This document shows, piece after piece, positions 42,001-48,000 of a stretch of 64,000 bases of DNA. The stretch lies in assembly GCA_038108555.1 (NCBI GenBank), contig JAYNIA010000001.1:70427-134426 (forward strand). The letters run 5' to 3'. Numbering within the stretch: position 1 is the stretch's first letter; every line of letters begins with the position of its first letter. Source of the stretch: Nitrospinota bacterium. Its GTDB lineage: Bacteria; Nitrospinota; Nitrospinia; Nitrospinales; VA-1. Made by a program: the position numbers.

Positions 42001-45000
42001 GTCAAAAACCTGTAAGAAAATAAAGTGCAGGGGCAATTCGAACCCAACAATGGCCAGATCCTCCCCGATAGAATCTATTTTATAGTATTTTTCTAAAATT
42101 TTGAAATGGAGGGTTTTTCGCCTTTAAAAGCGGGCCAGCCAGATTCCCAAAAAGAGGGCGATGGTCATTAGCGCCAGTGCCATACGACTTAGACCGATCA
42201 TCTTTTTTAGCGTTTCTGGAACAAGGGATTTGTTTTTGGGATTGAGGTCAAGATCTGAAATTTGGGTCCGCAATGAAAATGTCAGGTACATACTTACGAA
42301 AAAAGCCCCCGCCACAAAAACCATTTTAATCCCAAATAGATTGTAATAGCCCGGCTTGAGTCCTGTCTGTGCGGTGTAATTCACCAGAAGAAAATAAACT
42401 CCCGTTCCCACAAGAACCAGGAGGCTTGCAAACACTGTGGGTGCCAGGTGATCCAGAATTTTATAGGAGGGAGAATCTTCGTTACGCTCCTTCTGATTTT
42501 TTTCTGCCGCAGGGAGAAAAACCAGCAAGGTATAAACAGACCCCCCGATAGCAACTACCGCTGCCATCAGATGTAAAAAAATAATGAAATTGTTTTGCAT
42601 GGTTGGAGGTTTTTAGCGACCTTTCTCAAGGTAATTCAACAACAATCGAACTCCAAATCCTGAGGCTCCTTTACTGGTGTAGGGCCTGTCGAATCCCCAT
42701 GCAGTACCCGCTATATCGATGTGGGTCCAGGGTTGCTCCCCTGCAAATGGCTTAAGGAACGCAGCACCCATAATCGTTCCCGCCCCTACTCCCGGACTGG
42801 CAATATTTTTTAGATCGGCAATATCGCTTTTAGTGGCTTTTTCATATTCCGGCCAGAGGGGAAGCTCCCAGACCCGCTCTCCCGTAGCCTCTCCCGATGC
42901 TATTAATTTTTGAATCATTGCAGAATTATTGCCGACCACTGCAGCGGCATGATGGCCCAGGGCATGCAACACTGATCCCGTTAGGGTTGCCAGATCGATC
43001 ACTTCTTTCGGTTTAAACCGTTGCGCATATGAAAGAGCATCGGCAAGAACCAGCCTACCTTCAGCATCGGTGTTTAAAACTTCAATGGTTTTACCCGACA
43101 TGCTCGTTAAAATATCACCGGGTTTTGTGGCGCGTCCACTCGGCATATTTTCTGCCGCAGCAACAATCCCGATCACGTTGGCCTTGAGCTTCAGGTTGGA
43201 AACCAGTTGCAAGGTTGCCAGGGTGGTTGCGGCACCGGACATATCCATCTTCATCTCGTCCATACCCGCTCCGGGTTTAAGAGAAATTCCTCCGGTATCA
43301 AAGGTGATGCCTTTACCCACAATCACGGACGGAGCTTTCGATTTGGCAGCCCCTTTGTATTCGAGGATAATGAGCGCCGGGGGTTGATCACTTCCCCTTG
43401 AGACACCCAGCAGGGAACCCATACCCAGCTTTTCCATTTCCTTTTGGCCGAGAACTTTGCAGGAGATTTTATTTTTTCGCGCCATTTTCCTTGCATGGTC
43501 AGCCAGGTAAGTCGGAGTCGCAGTATTGCCCGGATGGGAGATCAGGTCACGTGCGGTGTGCACCGCGTCGATTATTTTTTCTGCACGCGAAATGGCTTTC
43601 TCCACCGATGCCTGCCGTGATTTGGATGAGACCAACAGCGTCAGTTTTTCTGTTCGGATGGGGGGATCGTCTTTTTCGTCTTTGGATTTATAGTCATCGA
43701 AATGATAAAGCGCCAGTCCGGCACCTTCAGCCAATGCCCCGGCCAATTCACCAAACAGCCCGCTCTTACCTTTGGACACGGTTTCGAAAACAGAAAGATC
43801 TGCCGAGATGGATTTGAACTTAGATTGCTCCGCCAGCTTGGCAGCGGTTCCACCCGCCCCACAAATTTTTTCCGCAGTTACATCCTTGGATTTACCTATT
43901 CCCACCAGGAGCAAGTGGGATGCACTTCCCGGACTGTTGAGCAGTAAAGTCTGCCCAGGTTTACCGGCAAACCTTTTGTTTTCAAATGCATCGCTAATAG
44001 CGCCGGAAAGTTCATCGTTGAACTTCTTAAGTGCTCCAGAAGGTTTCTTTTCTTCCAGACAAGGCAGAATCAGGCATTCGGTTTTATGTTCGAGGGATTG
44101 ATCTATCTTCTGGTTTATTTTTATCATGTTCGCCTTTAAGCAAGATGGATTAGGTTTAAAGAATGAGTTTATAGTTATGACCTTTTTCAATCAACCCGAA
44201 ATTTGGACTACCCGTAGCCGTGAGCTCGTTTGCAATCAATGTTGGCCCTATTTGCTGAAATTGGACAGGATAACAGCTTTTTTCAGGTAATTTTCACCCT
44301 GTAATTTCAATAATTTCCACTTCAAAGCAGCCTTTTGAGCCCTTGCTGGGGTGGCCGAGAGCAAATCGTCTAGAAGGTTGTAAATAGGGGCCTTAAATAA
44401 GAGTCCAAAACCTTTAAAAATCAGGGCCTGTGGAAATATTGACAATCGGCAGGACGATCACTAGAATGGCTGGAATTTTCAGCAGAATTATGAGAAATTG
44501 TAGCTCTCGAAAGCTGTGCATTTTGCAGCGGACCGAGTTTTCTAATACTTTAAATTTTTCAATTTTCGAATAGCAGGAGATCGTCCATGGAAGTTGTAGA
44601 AGACCAACAAGATCAGGCAGTCGCTGCAGAACAGGGTCAGATAAAAATAACCGTTTGTAAGAGCCTGAGTGGTATCGCCGAAGGCGCCGAAGAGGTCTAT
44701 GCAGAGTTTGAAAAACAAATCTCCGAAATGAAGGCCAACGCAACTTTAGGTGATAAAAATTGTCAAATGGCCCAGGTGGGTTGTCGCGGATATTGCAGCC
44801 GTGACGTGCTGGTCGATGTTTATGTTCCCGGTGAAGATCGGGTCACTTACGAAAAAGTCAAGCCTGCAATGGTCAAAAACATTTTAAACGACCATATCGT
44901 AGGTGGGAAACCCTTCAAAAAAGCAGCGGCCAAACCAGACTATTACGAAACTCTGGATATGCAAACCCGTGTTGCCCTGGCACACGGCGGATCGATCGAT

Positions 45001-48000
45001 CCCGAAAACATTGATGATTACATCAAAGTGGGTGGATATGAGTCCCTTAAAAAAGTCCTCTCCACTATGAAACCTGAAGAGGTCATTGCAGAGGTTAAAA
45101 AATCAGGTCTACGCGGAAAAGGCGGCGGTGGATTTGTTACCGCCAACAAATGGGAAAAAGCCCGCAACGCTCCAACCGATGAAAATGGCACTCGCTATAT
45201 CATGGTTAATGGAGATGAGGGAAACCCCGCATCTTATATGGACCGTAGCGTCATGGAAGGTGCATCGCATCAGGTACTGGAGGGACTAATCATCGGTGCT
45301 TATGCCATTGGCGCAACCGAAGCCATTATCTATACCCGTTCCGACTACGCCATTGCGGTAAAAAGACTGAATATGGCCATCGAAGCAGCAAAAGAAAGAG
45401 GATTCCTCGGTGACAATATTCTCGGCTCGGGATTCGGTATCAACGTACGCGTCCACGAAGGTCTGGAAGCTTTTATCGGTGGTGAATCCACCGCATTGAT
45501 GCAATCGGTGGAAGGCAAACGTCCCTTCCCGAAAGCGCAACCTCCACAATCTTGTGAAAAAGGGTTGTGGGGAAAACCCACCGTGTTGAACAACGCAGAA
45601 ACCTGGGCAACGGTTCCTAAAATTATTGAAAAAGGTGCCGACTGGTACGCTGGCATGGGTAACGACAATGCCAACGGTTGTAAGATCTGGGCGATTTCCG
45701 GAAACATCAAATACAACGGCTTGATGGAACTGGATATGAAAACCACCTTCCGCGAAGCCATTGACGATTACTGCGGCGGTATCCAGAAGAAAAAAGATCT
45801 CAAAGTGGTTCATGTAGGGGGTGTCACCGGCGGATTCCTTCCTCCGGAAAAAGCGGACACTCCAACCGACTATGAAAGTCTGTTGGAAGCGGGTGTTTTG
45901 ATGGGACAAGCCAGTTTCGCGGCTTACGATGAATCGGCCTGTGTGATCGACCTCGCAAAATTCTCCATCGGATTCAACGAAGGCGAAACCTGTGGCAAAT
46001 GCACACCGTGTCGAATCGGCCTCACCCTAATCCGGCAAAAACTGGATGACATTTCTGAAGGTCGTGGAAAGATGGAAGATCTTGATAAGCTCCAACAGCT
46101 TTGTGAAGAGATAAGCATGTCCTCACTCTGCGGATTGGGCGAAACGGCTCCGAAAGCGATTCTGACCGGACTGAAATATTTCCGCAAAGAATACGAAAGA
46201 CACATCGTCGATCAGGTTTGTGATGCGGCACGGTGCACGGGACTCTACCGCTACGTTGTTAAAGAAGAAGATTGTGTGGCCTGTGGAGCCTGCATCAAAC
46301 CTTGTCCTACAGGCGCAATCACCGGTGGAACGCGAAAGGTGGCAGCACACATCGATATGGACCTGTGTATCAACTGCAACGCCTGCTACCAGGCTTGTGG
46401 ATTCCTGGCCATCGCCTAAATTAAACTCGTTATTTCAAGCCCACAAGGGAAATCCCTTGTGGGCTTTTTTATTTCCCATCCTGGTAAACCTTTTAATTAA
46501 ACTTGAGGTGTATGCTTGACAGGCTCAGCATGACAAATTAAGAGCCAAGAAAACGTCATCCTGAGTTTATCGAAGGATTAAAGGTCTCTTTTTAATCCCA
46601 ACCGTGATCCTTTATTTTCCCAATAAAAGCATTTAGAATGCAGACAATGAAAATCGCGATCATTCATGACTGGTTGACCGGAATGCGGGGCGGGGAAAAA
46701 TGCCTCGAGGTTTTATGCAAACTTTATCCTGAAGCAGACCTGTTCACCCTCCTCCATTTACCTGGTAAAGTTTCACCGGTGATCGAATCGCACCGCATAC
46801 ATACTTCGTTTATTCAGAACCTGCCTTTCGCCGAGTCCAAATATCGCTACTACCTTCCGCTCATGCCGTTTGCGATTGAGACTTTCGATTTAAAAGATTA
46901 CGACCTGATACTGAGCAGCAGCCATTGCGTAGCCAAAAGCGTCAAACCGGGTCCTCGAAGCCTGCATATCTGCTATTGCCATACCCCCATGCGTTATATC
47001 TGGGACCAGTTCGACCAGTACTTCGGACCGGGGAAATCCAGTTGGATTGCAGCAACCGCAATGAAATTCATCCGTGGGTGGTTGCAACGATGGGATGCAA
47101 AGACCAGCCGCAGGGTCACGCATTTCATTGCCAACTCGGCGCACGTCTTGAAACGAATCAAAAAATATTACGGCAAAGAAGCAACGGTGATTCATCCTCC
47201 CGTCGATACCGAACTGTTCACCCCGGACGAAGCAGATGTTAAGCGAGAATACTTTTTGATCGTTTCCGCATTTGCTCCCTACAAACGGCTCGACCTGGCG
47301 GTGGAAGCCTTCAACCAACTCGGCCTGCCGTTTTATGTGGTAGGACAAGGACAGGATGAAAAGCGATTGAAAGAAATGGCAAAGTCGAATATCAAATTTG
47401 AGGGCTGGCTGAATAATGACCAGATCCGCAACCATTTTTCAAAGTGTCGGGCGTTTGTGTTTTGCGGCGAAGAAGATTTTGGAATCACTTTATTGGAAGC
47501 GCAGGCGATGGGACGCCCAGTGATCGCCTATGGTTGCGGAGGAGCATTGGAAACCGTTATCCCTGACAGTCAGAGCTGGCGACCGGAGACTGGAATTCCC
47601 CAGGATGCCACGTCCCAACCCACGGGGGTATTCTTTTACGAGCAGACACCCGAAGCATTGAAAAATGCCATCCAGCATTTTGAAGCCATCGAATCCCAGT
47701 TCGATGCCAATGCCATCCGCAAACACGCCCAGCAATTCGACCTGTCTGTTTATACCGAACGCATGAAATCCTTCATCGAAGAAAAACTTGCGGGCCACGC
47801 CCGCTAGCGTTACGCTCGATTAATCGAGGAAAAACTGCACAGTTTGGGTGATCAGTCCACAGTGGCACTTAACTCTTCAAGCAAACAAAATATTTCCCGA
47901 CCAAACTCAGAACAGGCTTTTAAAAGGGGTGGAGTCCAGCAAATCTTTTGGTTCCATTTTTTTCTCCGCAGGTTGTGATGTTTCTTCTTTAGACTGCGCC

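Follow-up and report, generated by a model that had tools for sequence, protein, structure and literature searches.

Closest described systems

Nuo-Bfu has been predicted as a type 3 Bfu enzyme (clades 38/39) in which BfuABC replaces NuoEFG on a complex I of 14 subunits, with menaquinone as third substrate and a BfuA that carries clusters A1-A5 (Schut et al. 2022, PMC9304861). In Deferribacteres, Proteobacteria, Planctomycetes and Nitrospirae a single operon encodes it, and it is taken to run forwards there, from NADH and reduced ferredoxin to menaquinone. Nitrospina is named neither in the text of that paper nor in the one supplementary file consulted, and no characterisation of a Nuo-Bfu was found in the literature searched. 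A second system is NUO-2, the second complex I of Nitrospina gracilis, which comprises nuoACHIJKLMN, nuoEGD, a lone nuoB2 and nuoF2, carries extra clusters and was assigned a role in ferredoxin reduction (Lucker et al. 2013, PMC3578206; Kop et al. 2024, PMC10839748). In the available passages of these two papers, NuoF2 is said to have no FMN site and to be unable to use NAD, a claim of PMC3578206 repeated in PMC10839748, and bifurcation is not proposed for NUO-2. The hypothesis held since 2013 for ferredoxin reduction in the ocean's main nitrite oxidisers has been built on a 'missing' FMN site.

The nuoF2 gene and the architecture of its product

Within the window, that is the whole stretch of 64,000 nucleotides analysed, whose position 1 is position 70,427 of contig C1 and whose numbering is used below for the parts of the gene, an ORF of 610 aa at 44587..46419 (+) is the NuoF2 of the second complex I (NUO-2) in Nitrospinales, a divergent flavoprotein subunit of BfuB architecture. 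The gene is monocistronic and is closed by an intrinsic terminator with a 13-bp stem and a T run (46437..46476, +). The best-scoring sigma-70-like promoter candidate, TTGACA-17-TAGAAT at 44439..44467 (+), lies 120 nt 5' of the start and matches 11 of 12 consensus positions, a consensus match only, given three such sites observed and 3.2 expected from shuffles.

The nine top PDB sequence matches of NuoF2 are Bfu B subunits, at 463-557 bits versus 324 for the respiratory Nqo1 of T. thermophilus, exactly as the first-pass annotation had reported. The structure model (pLDDT 91) has only Bfu B subunits among its ten best fold matches, with TM 0.84-0.91 over the whole length, and respiratory NuoF reaches at most 0.65. 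All domains that make up BfuB (FMN-binding, SLBB, NADH-4Fe-4S and 4Fe-4S ferredoxin; Schut 2022) were detected, PF01512, PF10589 and PF00037 above cut-off and SLBB PF22461 with E 5e-5 and 23.7 bits, below its cut-off of 27. Identity as a respiratory NuoF was considered and rejected, given that TIGR01959 scores 422.8 bits, under its cut-off of 558.65, and that the protein carries M218, F296 and both extra domains and has neither T/S-x-K nor YxCGEE. The AU test did not reject a grouping of NuoF2 with respiratory NuoF (p 0.19), which counts against the explanation that we favour.

From its N terminus, the protein consists of a thioredoxin-like domain with the B5 site (44629..44922, +; PF01257), a Rossmann FMN/NAD(P) domain (45094..45618, +; PF01512 at 130 bits, supported by alignments and conservation), a four-helix bundle with the B1/N3 4Fe-4S cluster and the B2 site (45940..46236, +; PF10589) and a C-terminal 2x[4Fe-4S] ferredoxin-like domain for B3 and B4 (46252..46413, +; PF00037/PF12838), which in Bfu enzymes forms the branch where ferredoxin docks. 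The Rossmann domain contains GKGGGGF (177-183), K188, NGDEGNPASYMDR (208-220), FIGGEST (296-302), KAQPPQ (316-321) and NNAET (335-339). Residues that contact FMN in A. mobile (K177, N194, E197) and T. sibiricus (D195) correspond to K188, N208, E211 and D210, of which K188, E211 and D210 are kept in 80/80 orthologues and N208 in 79, the remaining sequence having an X. The BfuB architecture and the retained FMN site are therefore well supported by alignment and model, and, since the FMN-contacting residues are kept in 80 orthologues, the published 2013 claim that NuoF2 has no FMN is probably wrong.

An orthologue is present in 96/102 Nitrospinales genomes, including 50/51 of those at least 90% complete, and of 80 distinct full-length orthologues 79-80 retain the motifs, so that both the near-universal occurrence and the motif conservation noted earlier hold in the larger set. 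The ORF and the positions of C452/H539/C545/C550 given earlier are also confirmed, and GKGGGG is at 177, NGDEG at 208 and GEST at 299. In 18 further genomes of the class the module was not found, the best identity there being 45%, and no sequence compared from outside the clade has more than 4 of the 15 diagnostic residues.

Cluster sites and bifurcation signatures

The 12 cysteines of B1, B3 and B4, including all eight of B3/B4, are each conserved in 80/80 orthologues. Following PMC8880783, the B1/N3 ligands are C469, C472, C475 and C515, and the B2 site consists of C452, H539 and C545 (80/80) and C550 (79/80), with S490 at the fifth position. T473, previously listed as a B2 ligand, lies within the CxxCxxC of B1, and it is S490 that aligns with A. 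mobile Cys476. Because this fifth position is Ser in 41 and Ala in 39 of the orthologues, B2 is probably better read, by analogy with most solved Bfu enzymes, as a Cys3His site for Zn than as a cluster. Nor, in the set compared, does the B2 His mark bifurcating proteins exclusively, as had been assumed: it is kept in 21/31 proteins with the non-bifurcating T/S...K/S/A signature, and all four ligands in 14/31.

The N-terminal 2Fe-2S site described earlier stands for C24, C66 and C70, but the second canonical Cys is Ser or Gly in 79/79 sequences; an invariant C59 opens the strand 58-64 of the same domain. This three-Cys B5 pattern recurs in 1/68 other BfuB, and the first Cys is absent in 30/68. 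The active, bifurcating T. sibiricus NfnB has Zn at both B5 and B2, and loss of the B5 cluster in T. kivui lowered bifurcation tenfold.

Two of the four residue features published as marks of bifurcation in beta subunits (Losey 2020, Feng 2022, Xiao 2025) are lacking in all 80 orthologues. The AFM motif, with Ala or Glu at Losey position 232, reads SYM (S216 in 80/80), and the SLBB loop at 45817..45831 (+), GGPSG in bifurcating subunits and in 61/68 other full-architecture BfuB, is GGVTG in 80/80. The Met at 234 and the Phe before CGEE are present as M218 and F296 (80/80). A fifth pocket loop (45901..45915, +), MGSGG in Bfu, is MGQAS, with Q441, A442 and S443 each in 80/80 orthologues, versus S in 66/68, G in 68/68 and G in 67/68 other BfuB. 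Judged by these residues, NuoF2 is not a canonical BfuB; its flavin pocket appears to have been rebuilt in a clade-specific manner, and coupling may consequently differ from that of Bfu hydrogenases. The earlier assignment to the bifurcating BfuB type thus stands for the architecture and the FMN site but not for AFM and GGPSG, and bifurcation by NUO-2 is something that we infer.

The nucleotide pocket is similarly altered: of five contacts identified in solved structures, four differ in NuoF2 (F180->K191, E287->S301, R303->Q318, F307->H/Q321), and F183 is kept. Position 318 is R or K in 68/68 other BfuB and Q in 80/80 orthologues; at position 321, 77 of the 80 orthologues have His, like the NAD-using WorB, and three have Gln, where T. 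kivui has Arg. With S301, the ribose 2' site has no acidic residue. It had been argued that GEST points to NADP, and the NADP-only HydB of T. kivui does provide a precedent for Glu->Ser, but so does the NAD-using WorB of A. mobile, for which reason we consider the odds on NADP as the nucleotide of NuoF2 to be about even.

These changes raise the possibility of a Bfu-derived, non-bifurcating quinol:ferredoxin oxidoreductase, that is the function proposed by Lucker with a corrected anatomy, in which FMN would be a relay, the pocket would no longer turn over NAD(P) and all electrons would pass to ferredoxin via C1/B3/B4. The absence of the ribose Glu, of both Phe that stack on adenine and of the Arg that binds the beta-phosphate of NADH, the alteration of all five pocket loops, the isolation of the diagnostic residues within the clade and the perfectly conserved ferredoxin branch would all fit. 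However, the S301+H321 pair is also found in 11/68 other BfuB, the same change occurs in two solved nucleotide-binding enzymes, and the altered residues show no drift, being invariant, with F183 retained. Such an enzyme, having three antiporter subunits, would also need about 213 mV if ferredoxin stands at -500 mV and 173 mV if it stands at -420 mV. We regard it as unlikely, although more probable than the other alternatives below.

Partners of NuoF2

The genome encodes all 14 NUO-2 subunits, as second copies of A, B, C, D and H-N plus E2, F2 and G2, with an assembly gap in nuoC2. As had been noted, NuoE2/G2/D2 are on C11 (6728-11042) and the membrane arm (nuoACHIJKLMN) on C26, and nuoB2 is on C69. 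The genes are spread over four loci and not united as bfuABC inside one nuo operon, the arrangement described for Nuo-Bfu, and none of the Nitrospinales loci examined has another nuo gene next to nuoF2. There are exactly two each of NuoF, NuoE and NuoG: NuoE1-F1-G1 are inside the nuoA-M operon, with ADESEPGTCKDR and CGEES in NuoF1 as previously read, and E2-G2-D2 are without an F. NuoE2 is BfuC-like (seven best PDB matches BfuC, 99-121 bits versus at most 86), with C91, C96, C132 and C136 as C1 [2Fe-2S] ligands. All 20 cluster ligands of NuoG2 are kept in 126/126 orthologues, and the protein is predicted to be a five-cluster BfuA (A1-A5) without a molybdenum ligand. A canonical BfuB gene is immediately followed by a NuoG2-like gene in the sister genome G005, and the NUO-2 core operon of family f9 includes a gene of this NuoG2-like type. 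Pairing of NuoF2 with NuoE2 and NuoG2 is well supported by this inventory, although drawn from it indirectly. Against the explanation that we favour, nuoF2 occurs with no nuoG2/nuoD2 match in G074 (a single contig, 93% complete) and in G064, and G062 has the match with no nuoF2.

Since nuoF2 is monocistronic, and the best scores of NuoG2 are to alpha subunits of formate dehydrogenase, the name it bears in some databases, NuoF2 could instead serve a soluble Bfu enzyme of the Fdh, Nfn or hydrogenase type, partnered by NuoE2/G2 or by another protein. This is very improbable, because the Mo site of NuoG2 has no Cys/Sec-His, with NLANxRAP in the eight commonest variants, nuoD2 directly follows nuoG2 in 11/11 Nitrospinales loci examined and the genome has only two PF10588 proteins. 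An Fdh-Bfu or formate dehydrogenase was likewise rejected, NuoG2 reading NNLANIRAP where the formate dehydrogenase match has DNCSRYCQSP, with no Cys/Sec-His Mo site.

Proposed mechanism and energetics

Our best reading, to which we give a probability of about 0.5, is that menaquinol and proton motive force would drive the coupled reduction of ferredoxin and NAD(P)+. NuoF2, binding FMN, would form an input module with NuoE2 (BfuC, C1) and NuoG2 (BfuA, A1-A5, no Mo) on a 14-subunit, menaquinone-linked complex I that would operate in reverse during nitrite-fuelled growth. Proton influx through NuoL2/M2/N2/H2 would raise menaquinol electrons via NuoB2, I2 and G2 to B1-FMN-C1, where every four electrons would be divided, NAD(P)+ receiving a hydride and ferredoxin two single electrons by way of C1 and B3/B4: 2 MKH2 + NAD(P)+ + 2 Fdox + about 8 H+out -> 2 MK + NAD(P)H + 2 Fdred. 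With its one NuoM, the bifurcated reaction was computed to need a Δp of 158-183 mV versus about 213 mV for direct ferredoxin reduction. Reverse reduction of ferredoxin and NAD(P)+ from quinol, as first suggested, is therefore thermodynamically attractive, but its coupling and direction are deductions. As judged from the pathway, rTCA pyruvate synthesis takes 4 Fd per 2 NAD(P)H, which is the Bfu ratio.

The genome has mqnA and mqnC, and menaquinone is reported in Nitrospinota (PMC13147460). Given the potentials of menaquinone (-74 mV) and nitrite (+430 mV), the route of menaquinone reduction is unexplained, and this counts against the best reading. Rnf was not found in the genome.

The genome also offers an NfnSL plus PntAB route to ferredoxin, which the first-pass annotation did not mention. 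NUO-2 might accordingly be a non-bifurcating, NADP+-reducing complex I, with ferredoxin reduced either by EtfAB or by NfnSL, which would draw on NADPH that PntAB supplies as well. Genes for NfnS (C35:317-1162), NfnL (C35:1-283 and C76:7685-8878), PntAB (C7) and EtfAB (C3) are present, the orthologous core in family f9 is connected to a GltD-like NADP flavoprotein, and NuoF2 shows two traits of non-bifurcating proteins, Ser at Losey position 232 and a loop that is not GGPSG. This is nevertheless improbable, as NfnS occurs in 33/102 Nitrospinales genomes versus 96/102 for nuoF2 and is missing from seven single-contig genomes (G024, G026, G037, G073, G074, G075 and G078), PntAB (87/102) already supplies NADPH, and B2, B3, B4 and a BfuC-type NuoE would be superfluous. 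Slightly less probable still is a true Nuo-Bfu working mainly forwards, in which reduced ferredoxin and NAD(P)H would be confurcated onto menaquinone, with four protons pumped, during glycogen or pyruvate oxidation. It is the role published for Nuo-Bfu (Schut et al., PMC9304861), Bfu enzymes can work in both directions and the genome has menaquinone genes; yet the module is near-universal in a nitrite-oxidising order and was not found in the 18 other class genomes, no other universal ferredoxin-reducing system was found and forward NADH oxidation is covered by NUO-1.

A more specific version of the best reading, an NADP-linked reverse Nuo-Bfu of Nitrospinales with a wholly rebuilt flavin pocket (SYM, GGVTG, MGQAS and three-Cys B5), is tentative, and we would not expect it to hold in full. 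If true, an obligate aerobe would obtain ferredoxin and NADPH 2:1 from menaquinol, the rTCA ratio, with one proton-driven machine, where Nitrospira relies on an extra NuoM, and bifurcation by Bfu enzymes would not require the sequence signatures now accepted for it.

Comparison with known systems

A second complex I with a remodelled electron-splitting input subunit could explain the ferredoxin supply for CO2 fixation, and the bifurcated route would be an energetic solution without an extra proton pump. The correction of the FMN site turns the 2013 hypothesis into a concrete test on three soluble subunits, and because NuoF2 breaks two signatures and keeps the ferredoxin branch, either outcome would be informative on the features that define Bfu bifurcation. 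Nuo-Bfu was predicted in 2022 for other phyla and in the forward direction (PMC9304861); NUO-2 would give a tractable aerobic example of that so far only predicted class.

NUO-2 in this genome has the gene layout and extra clusters of its N. gracilis counterpart, and ferredoxin reduction is proposed for both. It shares the subunit plan of Nuo-Bfu but differs in its four loci, its aerobic nitrite-oxidising host, the reverse direction proposed and its divergent pocket motifs. Similarly to T. kivui HydB (8A6T), the subunit of an NADP-only bifurcating hydrogenase, NuoF2 has NGDEG and GEST and has lost both adenine-stacking Phe, but HydB keeps AFM, CGES and R337, has Arg340 where NuoF2 has His/Gln, and belongs to a soluble enzyme whose third substrate is H2. 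A. mobile WorB (9MQX) shares NGDEG and the His at position 321 and has CGESS, and T. sibiricus NfnB (9N5U), which bifurcates with Zn at B2 and B5, is the best sequence match of NuoF2; both keep AFM, unlike NuoF2, and both use NAD at the FMN site and are not membrane-bound, and NfnB keeps GGPSG. Finally, reverse quinol-to-ferredoxin transport for the rTCA cycle has also been proposed for the 2M complex I of Nitrospira (per PMC12324825), which has an extra NuoM, methyl-plastoquinone and no NAD site, whereas NUO-2 combines a single NuoM with a flavin module, in a genome with menaquinone genes.

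The nuoF2 gene and its product

The nuoF2 gene is a single ORF of 610 amino acids on the forward strand (44587-46419), with a near-consensus sigma-70 site upstream (44439-44467) and a terminator downstream (46437-46476), both predicted as consensus matches. The leucyl aminopeptidase gene pepA (42613-44190) lies divergently and is kept as a neighbour in 52 of 77 related loci. Elsewhere in the window, a response-regulator/GspE-PilB-like ATPase at 49805-51945 appears to be divided between successive ORFs of 471 and 214 aa, possibly through a frameshift or sequencing error, and in a 1006-aa membrane protein (37343-40363) a spermidine-synthase-like domain and, at the C-terminus, TPR-like repeats were recognized by eye.

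NuoF2 is a real, conserved feature. Its Pfam domains are a thioredoxin-like 2Fe-2S domain, the FMN domain, a weak SLBB, N3/B1 and a C-terminal 2x[4Fe-4S]. As the first-pass annotation had reported, its nine best PDB matches are Bfu B subunits (463-557 bits, against 324 for Nqo1); in fold matches of its AlphaFold model (pLDDT 91), Bfu subunits take ranks 1-10 (TM 0.84-0.91), with respiratory NuoF at 0.65 at most. The wide presence claimed there also holds, given that an orthologue occurs in 96 of 102 Nitrospinales genomes (50 of the 51 that are at least 90% complete), and none was found in 18 other genomes of the class (best match 45%). Related loci at 71-95% identity carry Nitrospinaceae, Nitrospinales or Nitrospinota titles, and one is titled Nitrospirae. 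The clade is the sole member of its 50% cluster among 1.84 billion representatives; when intermediates between it and canonical BfuB were sought, the next cluster representative stood at 45% or less, and no Kuenenia, Geobacter or Nitrospira names appeared in the cluster look-ups around it.

FMN site and cluster ligands

The loci fetched gave 84 distinct full-length proteins for a residue-by-residue alignment, of which 80 are orthologues (at least 71% identity) and four are canonical BfuB used as comparators. FMN is contacted by K177, N194 and E197 in A. mobile HydB (PMC8880783, in excerpt) and by D195 in T. sibiricus NfnB (PMC12018979, in excerpt). The aligned residues in NuoF2 are K188, N208, E211 and D210; K188, E211 and D210 are found in all 80 orthologues and N208 in 79, plus one X, while the glycine loop, G299, E300, N335 and N336 are conserved in 79-80. 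The FMN site is therefore probably intact, as the first-pass annotation held.

None of the 12 Cys ligands of B1, B3 and B4 varies among the 80 orthologues. T473, previously named as a B2 ligand, lies inside the B1 motif; it is S490 (Ser in 41 orthologues, Ala in 39) that aligns with A. mobile Cys476, so that B2 is a Cys3His site, a type that holds Zn in the majority of solved Bfu enzymes according to the available part of PMC12018979. The N-terminal 2Fe-2S site (B5), which had been reported as kept, retains C24, C66 and C70 but not the fourth Cys; C59, considered as a possible substitute ligand, stands at the start of strand 58-64 in the secondary structure of the model, apart from C66/C70. 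Loss of the B5 cluster lowered activity tenfold in T. kivui (PMC10021017, in excerpt), but a three-Cys B5 is compatible with bifurcation because Zn occupies this site in the active T. sibiricus NfnB (same excerpt of PMC12018979). That non-bifurcating homologues lack the B2 His is indeed stated in the passages of Schut et al. consulted (PMC9304861); however, the His is kept in 21 of 31 sequences with a non-bifurcating signature, and all four B2 ligands in 14, these proteins being known from sequence alone.

Bifurcation signatures and phylogeny

Judged by the residues listed for bifurcation by Losey (PMC7311640, in excerpt), M218 and F296 agree with a bifurcating enzyme and S216 and GGVTG depart from it in 80 of 80 orthologues, departures that the earlier bifurcating-type reading had left out. 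All five pocket-lining loops are altered (R to K178, DPGAFM to NPASYM, GAGAFVCGEE to GLEAFIGGES, GGPSG to GGVTG and MGSGG to MGQAS); among 68 other full-architecture BfuB, the residues altered in NuoF2 are D213, R/K318 and G442 in all 68 and G294 in 67. Solved structures name five residues that contact the nucleotide; NuoF2 retains F183 and differs at the other four (K191, S301, Q318, H/Q321). Of 15 diagnostic residues, it has at most 4 in common with any of 184 sequences outside the clade. NuoF2 lies inside the Bfu family by domain definition and outside it by the published signature motifs. It is unlikely that the module is a non-bifurcating ferredoxin reductase.

In trees of the core domain alone (41 rows and 28/90 rows), IQ-TREE set NuoF2 among BfuB, at the end of a long stem, with a 99/97 branch between it and respiratory NuoF (28/90 rows), and FastTree gave its sister group without resolution. 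AU tests rejected neither its union with respiratory NuoF (p 0.19) nor that with the BfuB of genomes G005 and G006 (p 0.45).

NAD or NADP

The GEST motif of NuoF2 had been taken to point to NADP. Mutagenesis of E. coli NuoF Glu183 reportedly makes the same point as is made for Glu286, the Glu at the position of S301. This residue ensures NADH over NADPH, as the excerpt of PMC12018979 states. T. kivui HydB (NGDEG, CGEST and Arg340, where NuoF2 has H/Q321) provides a precedent for that reading, since HydABC reduces NADP+ at 20.8 U/mg and NAD+ at under 0.01 (PMC8578170, in excerpt), whereas A. mobile WorB, with CGESS and His at the 321 position as against S301 and His/Gln321, binds NADH and reduces NAD (PMC12318220, in excerpt). 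Among 68 BfuB, kin that are not independent, the 301/321 pair is acid plus aromatic in 55, neither in 11, mixed in 2 and the reverse in none, so that S301 with H321 is a recurrent variant. Against NADP stand a smaller energetic gain than with NAD and the presence of PntAB in 87 of 102 genomes; the odds that NADP is the nucleotide are about even.

Predicted partners of NuoF2 and variants of the core

The source genome (92% complete) encodes two NuoF, two NuoE and two NuoG. E1, F1 and G1 belong to a nuoA-M operon on contig C2, and the NUO-2 genes follow the layout that Lucker describes, with E2-G2-D2 on C11 (no F gene in the set), nuoACHIJKLMN on C26 (one L, one M, one N) and nuoB2 on C69. The top seven PDB matches of NuoE2 are BfuC; NuoG2 lacks the Mo ligand, and the full set of 20 ligands for its five clusters is conserved throughout 126 orthologues. 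All 11 Nitrospinales loci fetched contain E2-G2-D2, NuoG2 is matched at E of 1e-100 or better in 87 of 102 genomes, and in G005 a NuoG2-like gene lies directly 3' of canonical BfuB.

In no Nitrospinales locus fetched (flanks of ~1.5 to 10 kb) does nuoF2 adjoin any other nuo gene. In genomes G074 and G064 nuoF2 is present but neither nuoG2 nor nuoD2 is matched, and G062 shows the opposite pattern, mismatches that may be assembly gaps. NuoF2 would therefore be paired with NuoE2/NuoG2 by elimination and type; that it works instead in a soluble enzyme is very unlikely. G074 is a single contig, and in G091, also a single contig, nuoG2 is in two distant pieces (C1:474095-476032 and C1:1479110-1479736); these cases reflect assembly error or real loss.

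Family f9 (G112-G119) has an orthologous NUO-2 core (49-75% identity, NuoN 45%), which 5 of its 7 loci fetched connect to a GltD-like NADP flavoprotein. Its loci L132-L136, L139 and L140 (G113-G119) hold the core and a NuoG2-like gene in one operon, where NuoEF gives way to a GltD/SfrB-like NADP flavoprotein that carries a fused N3-type domain and two MrpD-like antiporter subunits replace NuoL before NuoM and NuoN; this complex may have four antiporter subunits. In family f5 (G001-G003; L052, L152, L153) the same core (NuoD 71-72% to NuoD2) comes with canonical NAD-type NuoEFG, so that, counting the Nitrospinales, the class combines this one core with three different input modules. Among metagenome relatives of the G006 BfuB (26 loci) no intact Nuo-Bfu operon and no membrane-arm genes were found. 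In metagenome loci L160-L164, L169 and L175 a BfuC-ferredoxin-BfuB set is directly followed by a second E/F pair with a non-bifurcating signature and the Cys3His site kept. L036 (G108) is a canonical NfnABC-type Bfu operon, and L038 (G081, Nitrospinaceae) holds a second E-F-HoxU-like set, in which the motifs read CGESS and KYIH.

Energetics and ferredoxin routes

Menaquinone has been detected in Nitrospinota, as cited in the excerpt of PMC13147460, and the source genome has mqnA and mqnC; the accessible parts of PMC11874023 and PMC13386864 add nothing further on Nitrospina quinones. By calculation, reducing ferredoxin (-500 mV) from menaquinol (-74 mV) at 4 H+ per 2 e- requires 213 mV, or 173 mV should ferredoxin stand at -420 mV, and the coupled reaction 158 mV with NAD (-280 mV), 168 with NAD(P) (-320) and 183 with NADP (-380); at 3 H+ it requires 211-244 mV, and with a high-potential quinone more than 200 mV. 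Splitting NADH as mid-potential donor to menaquinone and ferredoxin was rejected, since at -280, -74 and -500 mV the gain of 206 mV is below the cost of 220 mV before pumping. Pyruvate synthesis in the rTCA cycle would take 4 ferredoxins per 2 NAD(P)H, which is the Bfu ratio. We propose that NUO-2 could act as a reverse Nuo-Bfu, fed by menaquinol and driven by protons, in which reduction of ferredoxin and NAD(P)+ would be coupled; for reverse bifurcation by NuoF2/NUO-2, the mechanism favoured in the first-pass annotation, we estimate a probability of about 0.5.

Rnf was not found. The source genome encodes NfnS, NfnL, PntAB and EtfAB. Judging from the genes, NfnSL and PntAB would link NADH to ferredoxin by a proton-driven path, which had been overlooked. 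The NfnS/NfnL genes (L182, L183) are split over two contig ends (C35:1-1162 and C76:7685-8878) and would give aerobic nitrite oxidisers a bifurcating transhydrogenase of the Nfn type. These enzymes favour a reading in which NUO-2 reduces NADP+ and ferredoxin is reduced by other enzymes; NfnS, however, occurs in 33 of 102 Nitrospinales genomes and is missing from seven single-contig ones, so Nfn is not the general ferredoxin answer, and this alternative to reverse bifurcation is quite unlikely.

At C61:814-7058 of the source genome an antiporter-like subunit adjoins a 1084-aa gene and a P-II-like gene. The set looks like a DabAB inorganic carbon transporter, and the antiporter-like gene not like a fourth NUO-2 pump.

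Comparison with known systems

The quinol-to-ferredoxin idea for NUO-2 is repeated by Kop et al. 2024 (PMC10839748, in excerpt). No link of NUO-2 to Bfu or bifurcation occurs in the available portions of PMC10839748, PMC10203281, PMC13147460 and PMC13768755, nor did our literature search, outside which most subscription papers lie, find one for Nitrospina. The published statement that NuoF2 is without an FMN site (PMC3578206) is probably wrong; with this correction, an old question would become testable with three soluble subunits, the mechanism being a proposal.

Nuo-Bfu was predicted by Schut et al. 2022 as one operon working in the forward direction, in clades of Deferribacteres, Proteobacteria, Planctomycetes and Nitrospirae (PMC9304861, in excerpt); Nitrospina has 0 mentions in the portion of its text and the one supplementary file consulted. 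Mainly forward use of NUO-2, which would match that prediction, is distinctly improbable. In Nitrospira a second NuoM has been proposed as the answer to the same energetic problem (PMC12324825, in excerpt), and NUO-2, unlike the Nitrospira complex I, has no second NuoM. Lucker reported a similar operon in Kuenenia (PMC3578206), which may therefore be the Planctomycete member of Nuo-Bfu.
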